From: Candidatus Spongiisociaceae bacterium | GTDB taxonomy: Bacteria > Actinomycetota > Acidimicrobiia > Spongiisociales > Spongiisociaceae | DNA: 64,000 nucleotides | Reading direction: 5' to 3' | Assembly (NCBI GenBank): GCA_965262915.1 | Contig: OZ253564.1 | Span: 1,536,001-1,600,000, forward strand | Shown here: in pieces, positions 59,706 to 64,000 of the stretch | Layout of the letters: each line of letters starts with the position of its first letter | How positions within the stretch are numbered: the stretch's first letter is position 1 | Position numbers and translations under genes: made by a program | Notes under the pieces: generated by a model | Database searches by the model: none | What the model was told of the DNA's origin: nothing | What the model saw: only the letters and a program-made list of their open reading frames with translations

Positions 59706-59954
59706 TCGGTACGATCCGAACCACAACTGGAAACGATCCGAGCCACCGTATGCTCCGTCCGGGGGTACTCGACAACGTGGACCCCCACGGGCGAGATCAG
59801 AGGCCTACAGTTGACCGATGCCCAGCCCCATTGCCTCCGCGCTGGCGTAGTATCCCATCGTGCGACTCCCCACTGGTTGAGTTCCCCGATCACACCAGTG
59901 ATCCCGTCAGCGGTTTCAATCGGAACCAACGGCCGGCGCTGTCCAACAAGGGCG

Positions 59955-59960
59955 TAGAAT
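59955..59960 (+). promoter_or_regulatory. -10 box of the tRNA-Glu promoter
   Basis: TAGAAT 14 nt upstream of the tRNA 5' end. Confidence 0.55.
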
Positions 59961-59974
59961 CGCCTCACAACGTA

Positions 59975-60048
59975 GGCCCCGTCGTCCAGCCGGCCTAGGA
60001 CGCCGGCCTTTCAAGCCGGAAACGCGGGTTCGAATCCCGTCGGGGCCA
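59975..60048 (+). tRNA. tRNA-Glu(TTC)
   Basis: Acceptor GGCCCCG/CGGGGCC, anticodon arm CCGGC-CT TTC AA-GCCGG, T arm GCGGG-TTCGAAT-CCCGT; CCA not encoded. Confidence 0.97.
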
Positions 60049-60261
60049 CGGCGGGATGTTCGCCACCAATGGGCTGTGATGTTCGCCACTTAGCCGCTGA
60101 GGGGGTTGCAGGCACCGGTTTTGGGGTGTTCGGGCGGTGCCGGGTGGTGGTTCAGCTGGTTTCGCGGTGGGGTGGGATGGTTTTGCCGGCCCGGGGTGGG
60201 GGTGGGTGATGTTCGGGACGTGGCGGGTCGGACCCTTCCGGGTTGCCGCGTCGTGGTGCCC

Positions 60262-60519
60262 CTAGCGAGCGGGGACTGTCACCTGCCCTACTACCTGACC
60301 GTTGAACGTCTGCGCGACTGTGACATGATCCGGCAGCGACGGGTCTAGGCGGACGATGAAGCCGCCTTCGAGGGCGTACCCGTCGGGGAGTCGTGCTGCC
60401 AAGGCGTCAAGCTCCGCCATAATTGCTTCGTCGTGTGCCCCCGCTGCGGCTTCGTCGGACAACCGCGACAAAGCGGCTTCCATCTCTTCCCAGGTTTCTA
60501 CGTGTTCACGGGTAGCCAT
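60262..60519 (-). CDS. Putative antitoxin of unrecognised family (cassette 1)
   Basis: Acidic N-half; LPDGY..DP.LPDH..NG..VP motif shared with 61448..61717; own TACGAT-N6-ATG promoter. Confidence 0.7.
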   Translation of the reverse strand: MATREHVETWEEMEAALSRLSDEAAAGAHDEAIMAELDALAARLPDGYALEGGFIVRLDPSLPDHVTVAQTFNGQVVGQVTVPAR

Positions 60520-60569
60520 CCCCGAATCGTAACACCGGCGGCGGCTCCGGGGTTGCTGTGGTTCGCTCA

Positions 60570-60812
60570 CTAGCGTAGATATCGTCGGTCCGTCCGGTCT
60601 GATATGACATGGGCGTGGTAGACAACCAATTCGCTGCCACGCCATTCGGCAAGAACCATGGCTGGGCCTTGAGATGTCGGTCCGACATAGCGTATTCCGC
60701 TCTCGCCCCGTCGGGTGGTTATGGCCGCATAGCCGAATGGGTGGTCAATAGCCCACTGGATGTCACCCTGGGTCAGTCCCTGCCTGAACGCGGATTGTAG
60801 GTAACGGGCCAT
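60570..60812 (-). CDS. Putative BrnT/RelE-fold toxin (cassette 1)
   Basis: SAFRQGLTQGDIQWAIDHP...YVGP...VVYHAH, resembling SA.KHG...DI...G...VIHA toxins. Confidence 0.6.
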   Translation of the reverse strand: MARYLQSAFRQGLTQGDIQWAIDHPFGYAAITTRRGESGIRYVGPTSQGPAMVLAEWRGSELVVYHAHVISDRTDRRYLR

Positions 60813-61447
60813 GTGATAAGGGGAAGATTACCCGCACGTGCGGGGGGCTGCGCCCGCGGCTAGCGGGGTCGGAGACGGTCGGATCGGGGGGGCGTTCACG
60901 GACCAGGTCGCGGACGGCGACTGTGGCTGCGGTTGGATGGCGCAGGCCCCTGCGGGAATGTGGAAGTCCCCCCCACTGTTAATGTGGAAGTCCCCGTGGG
61001 AGTGGTCGTATCACCGCAGGTCAGGGATGGTGGCGAACATCCCTCAGAGGGATGTTCGCCACTAATGGGCTGTGATGTTCGCCACTTAGGCGCTGAGGGG
61101 GTTGCAGGCACCGGTTTTGGGGTGTTCGGGCGGTGCCGGGTGGTGGTTCAGCTGGTTTCGCGGTGGGGTGGGATGGTTTTGGCGGCCCGGGGTGGGGGTG
61201 GGTGATGTTCGGGACGTGGCGGGTCGGACCCTTCCGGGTTGCCGCGTCGTGGGGGGTTAGCCTGCCTGGGGTGGTCCCCTGCTGTGCTGGTTCGGGTTGT
61301 GTTCCGCTGGCAGCGGCGACTGTTCGACGGTTGCCTCGGTGATGTGTGGGGTGTGTTCGGGTGTACTGGTGGGGTCGGGCCGGGCGTGGGTGTCAGGCTA
61401 TGCGGCTTGGGTTGATCCGTCCTGAGAGACGATAAGGGTCGGGGCTG

Positions 61448-61717
61448 CTACCGGCGGACGGGAACCCTGCACATACCGGAGGGGACACCGTTCACAAGAG
61501 CGGGTATGTAAAAATGGTCGGGCAGGCCCGGGTCGGTGCGTATCACATGGTTGTGTTCGTCGAGTACGTACCCGTCGGGTAGTTGGCTGGCTAGATATTC
61601 GATGACGTCCACCCCATGGTCGAACTCGCCCGCTTCAGCGGCCCGGGCCAGCTCCCGGTACCGCTCCTCCTCTTCTTCTTCGCTCAGGGTATCGGCCGCG
61701 TGTGATGTCATCGTCAT
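61448..61717 (-). CDS. Putative antitoxin of unrecognised family (cassette 2)
   Basis: Acidic N-half (EEEEEE); LPDGY..DP.LPDH..NG..VP; own TATGCT-N7-ATG promoter. Confidence 0.7.
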   Translation of the reverse strand: MTMTSHAADTLSEEEEEERYRELARAAEAGEFDHGVDVIEYLASQLPDGYVLDEHNHVIRTDPGLPDHFYIPALVNGVPSGMCRVPVRR

Positions 61718-61784
61718 GCGGCGCAGCATACCCCATCCGATACGCGAAAGGGTCTCCCCGCCCCCCCGGGGGACGGATAGCGGA

Positions 61785-62006
61785 CTAGTACCGTCTGCAT
61801 ATATCTGCGTGGAACACGACAATGTCCCCGCGATGGTCATACTCATAGAGCACTTCGATCAAGTCCATGTTCGACGCGAACCCGACTTTCGATATCACCA
61901 GCTGACTTCCCCTAAGTTCCGAAACGGAGATGGGGCTGTCTAGTACCCTTTCGATGTCCCAGCGTGTGTAACCGTGCTTGAACGCCGAGTTCTTATAGCG
62001 GACCAT
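61785..62006 (-). CDS. Putative BrnT/RelE-fold toxin (cassette 2)
   Basis: SAFKHGYTRWDIERVLDSP...VGF...IEV...VVFHAD; homologous to 60570..60812. Confidence 0.65.
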   Translation of the reverse strand: MVRYKNSAFKHGYTRWDIERVLDSPISVSELRGSQLVISKVGFASNMDLIEVLYEYDHRGDIVVFHADICRRY

Positions 62007-62469
62007 GCTCACCTTCGTCCCACCGGACACCAACTCGGTCGTCTCCAGACGACATCCAGGCTCGTAACAGATTAGGGACCACGGTGGAACCGGTCCAGAC
62101 ATGGTCGGGCACATACTGGACCAGGGGTTCCGTCAGAACCCGCGGGTGGATGGCGCAGGCCCCTGCGGGAATATGGAAGTCCCCCCACTGATAATGTGGA
62201 AGTCCCCATGGGAATGGTCGTATCACCGCAGGTCAGGGATGGTGGCGAACATCCCACGGCGGGGTCTTCGCGTGTTGGTGGGTGTCGGGTTCGCGGGTTA
62301 GGGGGTTCGGTCGGGCTTTTGGCTGGTTTGGGGGGTTTTTGGGGGTCTGATGGGGTGTGTGCGGTGCTGCGGGGTGCCGGTTATGGGTGTTGGTGGTGTT
62401 GGCGGCTGGTTGTGGACGCGTTTGGTTCGATGGGTGGGTCCCGTCGATGGGGGATGGGTCGGGGTTGGT

Positions 62470-62775
62470 TTATGGGGGTGCCCGGCTGGGTGTGGGATTG
62501 GTCGGGTGTGGGGTTGGTGTGGCTGATGCGGTGGTGTTGGGGGTTGTCTGGTCGCGGTGGGCCGGGGTGGTGTGGTTCCGGTTCTTGGGGCGGCAGGCGC
62601 GTCGGGTGTGTTTGAGGTTGTGGATGACGGCGGCCATGGGCGCGGCGAGTGTGTGAGCAGCGAGACCGAACGCGCGGCAGGATGCTCTGTTGAAGCTGCC
62701 GTCGTCTTTGATCATGCCGTTGACGCCTTCGACGGGGTTACGTCCGGCGTAGAACGACCCGTCGGTTCCGTCCAC
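62470..62775 (-). pseudogene. 3' remnant of a DDE transposase (IS4-like YREK motif)
   Basis: YAGRNPVEGVNGMIK = Y-x2-R-x3-E-x6-K; HNL; T/P-rich tail ending RAPP. Confidence 0.7.
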
Positions 62776-63132
62776 TAACCTGTACCGCTACCCGCCTGTC
62801 GCCAAGATATGTCAGGTCATCGGGGCAACACCCTCCCGGTGGGTACCCCCAATACCGATGGAAACAAAAACCCGAACAACGCTGACAACAACAAGTAGGA
62901 GAACGACAATGCGGGGACGGCGTGTCACAGGGTATCGATACAGTTGATCGCGATCAGCAATCTGGGGAGGTCGGTCAGGTGTTTCGGAACTTCTGGAAGT
63001 GGTTCACCGGCTTATACCCGGCTACGGTAGTAGCCGTGCCTGCGTTGGCATTCGACAGTGTCCGTCTTGACATATGCAGTACTGCACGACACAAAACCGC
63101 TACTGGTGACATGCGACATATAGACTCACAGC

Positions 63133-63867
63133 ATGGCTGACCGCAGCGCTATCGAGTGGACGGATGCTACCTGGAACCCCGTGACAGGATGTTCCCAGAC
63201 GTCGCCGGGTTGTGACAATTGCTACGCGTTGACACTCGCTGTACGTCTGAAGGCCATGGGTAATCCACGGTACCAAGTAGACGGAGACCCGAAACGAAGC
63301 GGACCCGGCTTCGGACTCCAACTCCACCACGACCTACTGGACGTTCCCCACAGGTGGAAACGCCAGCGAACCATTTTCGTGAACTCGATGAGCGATCTCT
63401 TCCATCCAGACGTTCCCTTCGATTTCATTACTGAGGTGTTCACCGTCATGAACGAGACCCGACGGCATCGCTTCCAGATTCTGACCAAACGTTCCCACCG
63501 GATGGCACGAACTGCTGTAGACCTCGATTGGTCAGACAACATCTGGATGGGGGTCAGCGTCGAGAATCGACGTTACACGTTTCGTATTGACCACCTGAGA
63601 GAAGTTCAAAGCCATATCCGATTCCTATCTCTCGAACCTCTAATCGGGCCGCTTCCCGCTCTTGACCTGACCGGGATACATTGGGTAATCGTAGGTGGTG
63701 AGAGCGGGTATAAGGCACGGCCTATTGATCCTGCTTGGGTTCGCGACATCCGTGACCAGTGTGCGGACGCTTCAGTACCGTTCTTCTTCAAACAGTGGGG
63801 GGGCCGTACATCTAAGGCTGGCGGTCGACTGCTTGACGACCGTACGTTTGACGAGATGCCTGTTTAG
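63133..63867 (+). CDS. Phage Gp37/Gp68 family (DUF5131) three-Cys protein
   Basis: IEWTDATWNPVTGC...SPGCDNCYA, FVNSMSDLFH, LTKR, WVIVGGESG, FFKQWGG. Confidence 0.93.
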   Translation: MADRSAIEWTDATWNPVTGCSQTSPGCDNCYALTLAVRLKAMGNPRYQVDGDPKRSGPGFGLQLHHDLLDVPHRWKRQRTIFVNSMSDLFHPDVPFDFITEVFTVMNETRRHRFQILTKRSHRMARTAVDLDWSDNIWMGVSVENRRYTFRIDHLREVQSHIRFLSLEPLIGPLPALDLTGIHWVIVGGESGYKARPIDPAWVRDIRDQCADASVPFFFKQWGGRTSKAGGRLLDDRTFDEMPV

Positions 63868-63882
63868 GAAACTAGTCCCCAG

Positions 63883-64000
63883 ATGAGTGATCGGCTGTTC
63901 GACCCTGGCCCTGAGACGCGAACCGAAGTGCGGATCAAGTCACTGACAGAACCCGTCTGGAGCGAGAACAAGGCTTTGCTGATCGCGCGGTACCTGCGGT
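63883..64000 (+). CDS. Probable three-Cys-motif partner protein TcmP, 3'-truncated by the window edge
   Basis: VWSENKALLIARYL N-terminal motif; directly follows DUF5131. Confidence 0.6.
   Translation, partial: MSDRLFDPGPETRTEVRIKSLTEPVWSENKALLIARYLR

Follow-up and report, generated by a model that had tools for sequence, protein, structure and literature searches.

The 3' flank of a tRNA-Glu gene in the genome of a Candidatus Spongiisociaceae bacterium is occupied by two short units placed head to tail, cassettes C1 and C2. What kind of element are they, and how could they have come to be stacked behind a tRNA gene? The window, i.e. the whole stretch of DNA analyzed, is 64,000 nucleotides long and corresponds to positions 1536001-1600000 of the G000 genome, which is a single 5.06-Mb contig (itself numbered C1). 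The two cassettes are very likely transposase-less cargo units of an undescribed family of two-protein transposons of the Asp-Asp-Glu (DDE) type, found in sponge-associated Acidimicrobiia. Comparison of family copies shows 5-bp duplications of variable sequence, insertion at a fixed point and in a fixed orientation behind tRNA and transfer-messenger RNA (tmRNA) genes, and recurrent use of one site; by the same comparison, units devoid of a transposase share their ends with units that carry one. A first description, made from the letters alone and called here the sequence-only reading, had proposed a non-autonomous, possibly tRNA-targeted transposon family that swaps cargo and accumulates in arrays. 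This interpretation is supported.

Layout of the array and structure of its ends

The target is a tRNA-Glu(ttc) gene on the forward strand (59975..60049), recognized by both ARAGORN and Rfam, whose discriminator base lies at 60048. The first copy of the 5-bp target duplication, ACGGC (discriminator plus 4 nt, 60048..60052), precedes C1 (60053..61043, forward strand, 991 bp). The head-to-tail spacer TCAGA (61044..61048) separates it from C2 (61049..62255, forward strand, 1207 bp), which is followed by a second ACGGC (62256..62260). This order, and the difference between the spacer and the outer duplication, are read directly in the sequence as first described. The pair is indeed flanked by the duplication, but the array does not stop at the second ACGGC: a third, larger element, E3, starts at 62261 (left part 62261..64000, forward strand), and this 5-mer flanks both the pair and E3. 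The right end of E3 is at genome position 1601470, ~1.5 kb beyond the window, and a third ACGGC follows. The complete order is ACGGC-[C1]-TCAGA-[C2]-ACGGC-[E3]-ACGGC, with older remnants beyond. No Rfam family besides tRNA was matched within 59800-62800 at E <= 0.1, and a promoter and terminator scan was uninformative (1 promoter-like site for 0.7 expected, 0 terminators).

The arms of the cassettes are closely related. The left arms (C1, 60053..60256; C2, 61049..61386; both on the forward strand) share 204 nt with 98.5% identity and the 3 mismatches initially counted, and all 338 nt of the C2 arm are common to a copy at genome position 1683160. The right arms (60929..61043 and 62142..62255, forward strand) are 94.8% identical over 115 columns. 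The earlier count of four substitutions and one indel is exact for the inner ~110 nt and falls short for the full alignment, which contains 5 substitutions and 1 indel. Both cassettes close with a 14-15-nt terminal inverted repeat, as stated in the sequence-only reading. The left arm of C1 comprises the terminal 14-mer (60053-60066), a repeat (60078-60089) and a third motif (60123-60134); this third iterated motif, GGGGTGTTCGGG, is found at +70 in both cassettes (60123 and 61119). The right arm of C1 contains two AATGTGGAAGTCCCC motifs (60957 and 60981) in addition to its terminal inverted repeat. The iteration of sub-terminal motifs stands up to counting: the window contains GATGTTCGCCAC 6 times (0.56 expected), a number reached in 0 of 100 shuffles, and AATRTGGAAGTCCCC 4 times (0.01 expected). 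A resemblance of the left-arm repeats to the tRNA T-arm was considered and rejected, as they have just the core GTTCG in common with it and this core is missing from the ends of the distant subfamily.

Copies of the family in the same genome

The arms are not confined to this locus or to this cargo, as a search of the genome and of related genomes with the arms revealed. A loose fuzzy search with the terminal 14-mer returned 1279 matches, mostly due to chance, and was discarded in favor of a tighter pattern built on the end core. The ends found in G000 with this pattern are of two flavors, A-type ends beginning with GGGGTCTTCGCG and B-type ends beginning with GGGATGTTCGCCAC, each with its own left and right version. 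C1 and C2 have B-type ends and E3 has A-type ends. Hybrid units are present as well, e.g. one with an A-type left and a B-type right end (688561-687522). The ends of full copies are asymmetric, with three iterated sites on the left arm and different ones on the right arm.

Accumulation in arrays, suspected from the tRNA-Glu locus alone, recurs in three further arrays of G000. The first extends over 28 kb behind tRNA-Met (1661584-1689799), with ACAGC as outer flanks and ACGCA, ACAGC, ACAGA and ACGCA as internal spacers. The second lies behind tRNA-Arg(cct) (4155525-4181769) and is bounded by GCTCC. The third, on the reverse strand (692299-686348), is bounded by ACTTA with the spacers ACCAG and ACAAC; no tRNA precedes it and the flank at 692299 gave no RNA match. 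In addition, a 2.7-kb element bounded by ACCAA (476302-479044) follows a tRNA-like gene. All junction spacers and outer flanks in the G000 arrays are 5 bp long. Identical 5-mers flank six G000 units or arrays (ACGGC twice, ACAGC, GCTCC, ACCAA and ACTTA) and single cassettes in the G174 (ACAGC) and G169 (ACACA) genomes, i.e. eight bounded units or arrays in total. The internal spacers have C at position 2 in all cases and A as first base in all but one, a form that matches a discriminator base with C after it.

Target site selection

The target rule was derived from 16 junctions between a tRNA-type gene and a left end of the family, collected in 9 genomes. For 15 junctions, the start of the left end is exactly 5 nt past the last acceptor-stem base (discriminator plus 4 nt), and the insertion point is one base beyond CCA where CCA is encoded. 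The exception, in G174, has 6 extra nt, a repetition of the 5-mer. In two junctions the end does not begin with GG, and its boundary was therefore set by the register with relatives. The left end is turned toward the tRNA in 16/16 junctions. The targets comprise tRNA genes for Glu, Met, Arg, Leu, Lys and Ser, tmRNA and the tRNA-like gene. The latter (genome positions 476209-476297) has a low GC content, a good T-arm, a 6/7-paired acceptor stem and an encoded CCA; it is below the Rfam threshold (16.9 bits) and was not called by ARAGORN, and is still hit at the canonical position. The tRNA targeting that had been put forward as a possibility is supported by this one fixed position behind tRNA and tmRNA genes.

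The transposase genes were also located relative to tRNA genes. Once de-duplicated by contig coordinates, 37 distinct transposase C-termini were obtained, 11 of which directly face a tRNA or tmRNA gene at 267-343 nt. At least 3 more are found deeper in arrays that start at a tRNA and one is cut by a contig end. At the tRNA-Val gene of G122, a transposase copy truncated at residue 442 directly abuts the tRNA, which looks like a deletion of the left arm and of the C-terminus.

It could be argued that the transposase favors the 5 bp beside an end of its own family, in the manner of IS30 and its inverted repeats, and that the tRNA is just the first landing site. The exact 5-bp head-to-tail junctions of the array devoid of a tRNA (692299-686348) are in line with this proposal, as are the remnant ends adjoining some insertions classified as 'non-tRNA'. 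Nevertheless, behind each of eight different tRNA-type genes, single elements with no other end nearby occupy the same position, and targeting of ends leaves the orientation rule unexplained. We regard this explanation as unlikely, although the two modes of targeting are not mutually exclusive.

Proteins of the full-length copies

A full-length copy bearing a transposase was the object to look for according to the sequence-only reading. Three intact copies are present in G000 (4155736, 1661797 and 1676910), and C1 and C2 are non-autonomous in the sense that these relatives in the same genome carry the transposase that they lack. Each intact copy contains three genes on the strand reading toward the left end, coding for a transposase, a recombinase-fold protein and a small divergent regulator with a weak Rrf2 match. 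The earlier statement that neither cassette encodes a recombinase also holds: the family transposase and its partner protein, used as tblastn queries, had no match inside C1 or C2.

The transposase is 576-625 residues long. In an alignment of 14 transposases the residues D195, D318 and E492 are invariant, together with the Y485-x2-R488-x3-E492-x6-K499 (Y-2-R-3-E-6-K) signature. At E <= 0.01, PF13751 was matched by 12 of the 14 and PF01609 by 5. Relatives number 24-26 among 5.8 billion proteins, all unnamed, in a search limited by its word filter. The transposase was found in 12 of the 301 genomes of the order, and at 20 loci of species-representative genomes, all of which are metagenome-assembled genomes of the Acidimicrobiia type.

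The partner protein, of 315 residues, is encoded directly upstream of the transposase in every full copy, even in relatives that are 35% identical. It has no Pfam or NCBIfam match, and a profile search against the sequences of the PDB gave chance-level matches only. Its AlphaFold model, submitted to Foldseek, has tyrosine recombinases as top matches without exception (XerA, Cre, XerD, XerH and IntI, best E value 9e-4). A protein atlas places it beside clusters including one in which 34% of the members belong to the Phage_integrase family. A profile search with the protein retrieved 1896 representative relatives at E <= 1e-3, a few of which match PF00589. Recombinase-like relatives occur in 12 of 401 genomes of the phylum, a tally that includes three unpublished genomes (G444, G317 and G521) and is the only result to draw on them. 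Alignments of 9 and 12 members contain no conserved Tyr after an R-x-R-S-T-W box and no Arg after GAGL, and because of this we read the protein as a putative, catalytically dead recombinase-fold DNA binder. The recombinase-like protein P0002 has no Tyr at all downstream of the box. Elsewhere, recombinase-like relatives are found as three tandem paralogues (G365:C1:939318-942124 and G447:C145:27403-30139), an arrangement that presumably resembles the elements called 'recombinase in trio'.

A tyrosine recombinase could in principle move these elements itself, with the inverted repeat-5 bp-inverted repeat junctions as core or coupling sites and the DDE protein as an incidental passenger. The sequence-only reading had mentioned such a junction as an alternative. 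The fold of the partner protein and the few distant members matching PF00589 agree with this scenario, and the 3' ends of tRNA genes are classic integrase targets. However, the partner protein lacks the catalytic set of tyrosine recombinases with its Tyr nucleophile, having neither a Tyr past the box-II-like motif nor an Arg after GAGL. The flanks are true duplications, identical 5-mers that vary from site to site, and fit staggered cuts rather than shared core or coupling sequences. Insertion takes place after the tRNA gene, of which nothing is copied except the discriminator base, and full copies always have terminal inverted repeats, subterminal repeats and the DDE/YREK protein. Integration by a tyrosine recombinase is accordingly very improbable, and the coupling-sequence junction is not supported.

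The large copies also carry defense genes. The copy behind tRNA-Met (1661584-1675267) carries an HKD-Snf2 helicase and a type IIG restriction-methylase, and the copy behind tRNA-Arg (4155525-4168575) an MmeI-type type IIG enzyme. Transposase genes of the IS30-like, ISL3 and IS110 types are found in the tRNA-Arg island as well. A Pfam scan of the core and cargo open reading frames of two full copies detected no homologue of TnsA, TnsB, TnsC or TniQ; the one rve match in full copies is the IS30-like gene within the cargo. Outside the Acidimicrobiia, the same layout is found on the RefSeq plasmid pSCL3 of Streptomyces clavuligerus (255-258 kb), with a regulator, a 322-residue relative of the recombinase-like protein and a 579-residue relative of the transposase (28.7% identical). 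Both larger genes are annotated as hypothetical, and no tRNA lies within 5 kb of this locus.

Cargo of the cassettes

The interiors of C1 and C2 were described as strongly diverged. They are diverged but not unrelated, both containing the same two-gene module on the reverse strand. Gene A encodes 80 residues with a BrnT-like toxin fold in C1 (60570..60812) and 73 residues in C2 (61785..62006), 36% identical to each other. Gene B encodes a predicted antitoxin-like partner of 85 residues in C1 (60262..60519) and 89 residues in C2 (61448..61717), 40% identical to each other. The model of gene A has a predicted local distance difference test (pLDDT) value of 88. Its top structural matches are a chain of a Salmonella toxin-antitoxin complex (7vd7_A, E value 6.9e-3, template modeling (TM) score 0.68) and the ribonuclease toxin BrnT (3u97, E value 0.052, TM 0.59/0.61). 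A language-model atlas provides a weak lead only, in agreement with a BrnT-like gene A. Neither A nor B matched Pfam, NCBIfam or PADLOC; in particular, gene A had no match to PF04365 or any other Pfam family at E <= 0.1, and no recognized antitoxin domain was found in gene B. One close relative of gene A was retrieved in a word-indexed protein search.

The predicted complex of A and B scored 0.79, against 0.00 for the best control. Among solved complexes, 58 of 80 attained this mark, and among mismatched pairs 2 of 110; these counts are rough and to be read with the shallow alignments of the pair itself in mind. The runs have at least 58% of contacts in common, the partner pLDDT is at least 66, and the modeled interface would take in the invariant His66 of A. 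Besides the pairs of C1 and C2, the G000 genome contains no fewer than three complete A/B pairs and a solitary B that lacks a matching A, mostly inside or beside family elements. The structure predictions thus support a toxin-antitoxin-like module with the putative toxin gene first as the cassette cargo.

Occupancy of the tRNA-Glu site and spread of the cassettes

The search for an empty tRNA-Glu site in sister species, suggested at the outset, succeeded. The locus was found in 8/8 genomes of the genus; the tRNA-Glu(ttc) site is empty in 3 (G042, G087 and G108) and occupied in 5, with different contents in each. G000 has C1-C2-E3 behind ACGGC, and G122 a B-type left end behind ACCGC. In G174, the 5-mer ACAGC is followed by a single B-type cassette of 1.9 kb that carries a PIN-like pair (its PIN match, E value 0.011, is below threshold; PADLOC recognized neither this pair nor the transposase or its partner protein). 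In G169, ACACA precedes a cassette whose left arm is truncated and which holds another A-like pair; two more elements come after it. In G190, an E3-like element stands right at the tRNA behind ACCAC with zero cassettes. The latter occupancy fits an earlier arrival of E3, with the cassettes added afterward between it and the tRNA. In line with the cargo swapping first proposed, copies with common ends differ in their cargo, with diverged BrnT-like pairs in G000, the PIN-like pair in G174 and the other pair in G169. On its left the G174 cassette has ACAGC-T-ACAGC, and on its right ACAGC three times in a row; these copies may have been left by successive rounds of insertion and excision, or may be a simple repeat that was already there.

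Within G000, the only trace of a transposase in E3 is a C-terminal remnant (residues 483-576, 73% identical to the family transposase) on the reverse strand (62473..62757). Next to it, on the forward strand, the E3 cargo includes a DUF5131 gene (63133..63867, E value 8e-97). The left 490 nt of E3 occur at least 12 times in the genome. Past E3 (genome positions 1601476-1604260), older degraded ends are found together with a fragment of the family regulator gene: a left-like end 18 nt beyond the third ACGGC, a degraded right end with the flank ACAGC at 1604015 and another left-like end at 1604059. The tRNA-Glu array is therefore older and longer than its intact units show.

B-type left arms were detected in 6 of 29 genomes of the taxonomic family. 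A copy of C1 is present in G094, which belongs to another genus (g2), with 96.6% nucleotide identity over 941 nt, 97.5% identity for the gene A product and 100% for that of gene B. It lies at a non-tRNA site with the near-duplication TATGT/TATAT, and no transposase match was found in the G094 genome. The arms are 91-95% identical between species against ~78% for the flanking gene. This near-identical copy and the arms closer than the flanking gene indicate that the cassettes move between hosts, or did so recently, as far as can be judged from sequence divergence. The stretch, or most of it, is represented in 16 public runs from 7 studies, with no RNA dataset among them. Two contig joints from the tRNA to an E3-like end (X4 and X1) were given no weight, their sides being 29-30 nt long and most likely derived from related organisms in the samples.

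Proposed mechanism and objections

In the proposed mechanism, catalysis would be performed by the DDE transposase through staggered 5-bp cuts. By analogy, the dead recombinase might read the tRNA gene, most simply via the invariant T-arm at a fixed distance, and position the transposase, a role that we advance tentatively; TnsF in Tn6022 would be the precedent for a dead recombinase acting as target reader. The same site being used repeatedly, elements stack head to tail with 5-bp spacers, and the apparent lack of target immunity would let arrays extend on their tRNA-proximal side. At tRNA-Glu, E3 would have arrived first. C1-TCAGA-C2 would then have inserted as one composite unit into the tRNA-proximal ACGGC, by the left end of C1 and the right end of C2. 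TCAGA is not accounted for by an insertion in place, because this would leave ACGGC between C1 and C2. Neighboring units could thus move together by their outer ends, each spacer representing an old duplication; TCAGA would be left over from a previous target site, and the [A/T]C-NNN form of the spacers would fit an origin at other tRNA flanks. The cassettes would need a transposase provided in trans.

Several observations weigh against this interpretation. The transposase is below the curated cut-offs of PF13751 (24.0 vs 25.1) and PF01609 (18.9 vs 23), and reaches 24 bits with the IS1182 model NF033551, whose cut-off of 270 places it outside IS1182; its profile search against PDB sequences produced chance-level matches only. 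The model of the 315-residue protein is weak, with a mean pLDDT of 64.5, values <50 for the C-terminal 77 residues and TM scores of 0.26-0.29. The terminal 14-mers of A-type and B-type ends differ at 5/14 positions and no transposase linked to B-type ends was found in the G000 genome; C1 and C2 may be immobile here, or moved by something unseen. Some ends are distant from any tRNA (692299, 537249 and 1687155 in G000, plus the G094 copy), and 22 of the 37 transposase copies have an unassigned context, several of them in multi-copy clusters. Homologous recombination between arrays could account for the unequal internal spacers.

The assembly itself has to be considered, since repeated arms may produce a false tandem join. 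The contigs of four short-read runs end within the arms without exception, and no contig crosses a cassette junction with 31 nt on each side. Yet the genome is a single 5.06-Mb contig, 5-bp-spaced junctions recur at four other loci and in other assemblies, and contigs of four runs from four studies join the C1 cargo to the inner left arm with 0 mismatches, three of them continuing into the right arm. An artefact is hence highly improbable. Least probable of all is that one cassette was simply duplicated in tandem on the spot and that the interiors diverged afterward: the left arms of C1 and C2 are closer mutually (98.5%) than to any other copy (91-95%), but their cargo proteins are 36-40% identical when the arms are 95-99% identical, the junction spacer is unlike the flanks, C1 exists alone in another genus at 96.6% identity, and the arms found elsewhere with other cargo speak directly against it.

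Comparison with known systems

The behavior of the family is closest to that of Tn7-like elements. Type V-K CRISPR-associated transposons, for instance, are found at tRNA sites. Common traits are the 5-bp duplication, insertion in one orientation and at a set distance downstream from a conserved gene, asymmetric multi-site ends, a safe-harbor site, defense cargo and a separate selector, the latter being putative here. The family described here differs by an IS4-like transposase in place of one of the Mu/retroviral type, by the absence of Tns machinery in the scanned proteins and by the lack of any sign of target immunity, one site being struck repeatedly. In Tn6022, an inactivated protein with a tyrosine-recombinase domain, TnsF, selects comM (Faure et al. 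2023, PMC10293859).

The Y-2-R-3-E-6-K signature defines the transposases of the IS4 family; IS4 proper has CA/CT termini and a duplication of ~10 bp (8-13 bp family-wide), and the 'emerging' families ISH3, IS701 and IS1634 have 4-6-bp duplications and an incomplete YREK motif, according to De Palmenaer et al. (2008, PMC2266710), in whose text 'tRNA' appears nowhere. Set against these descriptions, the transposase studied here has the complete DDE/YREK signature in common with IS4, but the family has a 5-bp duplication and GG termini and scores under the gathering thresholds of PF01609 and PF13751. The length of the duplication fits ISH3, IS701 and IS1634, whereas the YREK motif is complete. 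From what is described there, a second conserved gene, cargo and a defined target distinguish the family from both IS4 and the 5-bp families.

Mobile insertion cassettes, e.g. MIC231 of the Bacillus cereus group, have the ends of an insertion sequence (IS) family and passenger genes, without a transposase. C1 and C2 resemble them in their IS-type ends, their passenger genes, the missing transposase and the presumed mobilization in trans and, as objects, are mobile insertion cassettes. In contrast to those described, their parent element is site-specific for tRNA 3' flanks; their ends are long and asymmetric (~200 and 115 bp), and they are stacked in arrays with a toxin-antitoxin-like cargo.

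The likeness to integrons noted in the sequence-only reading holds as a loose analogy only. Integrons likewise form ordered arrays of small cargo at one dock, with the newest presumably beside the dock; here, there is no IntI, attI or attC, the boundaries are inverted repeats and 5-bp spacers, and the cargo, read in the direction away from the dock, has its own upstream region. Integrases and casposons that target tRNA genes also use the tRNA 3' end as a safe harbor, and the duplication they make covers part of the tRNA or a site of 14-15 bp. The present family inserts past the mature 3' end and duplicates 5 bp. The cargo is comparable to BrnT/BrnA in the fold of gene A, the toxin-first order and a predicted A-B interface involving an invariant His of A, and differs from it by the lack of a Pfam, NCBIfam or PADLOC match and of a recognized antitoxin domain in gene B. 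A literature search of main texts, subscription journals excepted, yielded no description of an IS-type DDE element from bacteria that targets tRNA 3' flanks, and none of these cassettes. The family is best seen as an undescribed form of targeted DDE transposition.

Implications

To our knowledge, site-specific DDE transposition with a dedicated target selector has so far been a hallmark of the large Tn7 machinery. The present system is much smaller and looks like one IS4-like transposase plus one recombinase-fold protein; its target is generic (the 3' flank of any tRNA) and is hit with single-nucleotide precision in a fixed orientation. It is conceivable, and we hold it as a possibility somewhat short of even, that an IS4-type transposase recruited a dead tyrosine integrase as its tRNA-gene reader. 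The outcome would be a minimal two-protein, orientation-specific transposon able to insert behind practically any tRNA or tmRNA gene, one nucleotide beyond the position of CCA. Free of target immunity, such an element would make tRNA flanks grow by themselves into reservoirs of toxin-antitoxin and restriction cassettes, and would represent a second, independent invention of the TnsF/Tn6022 type on another scaffold. Its genes being annotated as hypothetical even in a RefSeq Streptomyces plasmid, the wider family is probably under-recognized. Overall, the family provides a transposon-based route to tRNA-linked islands, which are usually credited to integrases, and a means by which toxin-antitoxin and restriction-modification genes can be shuttled as small cassettes between sponge-symbiont genera.

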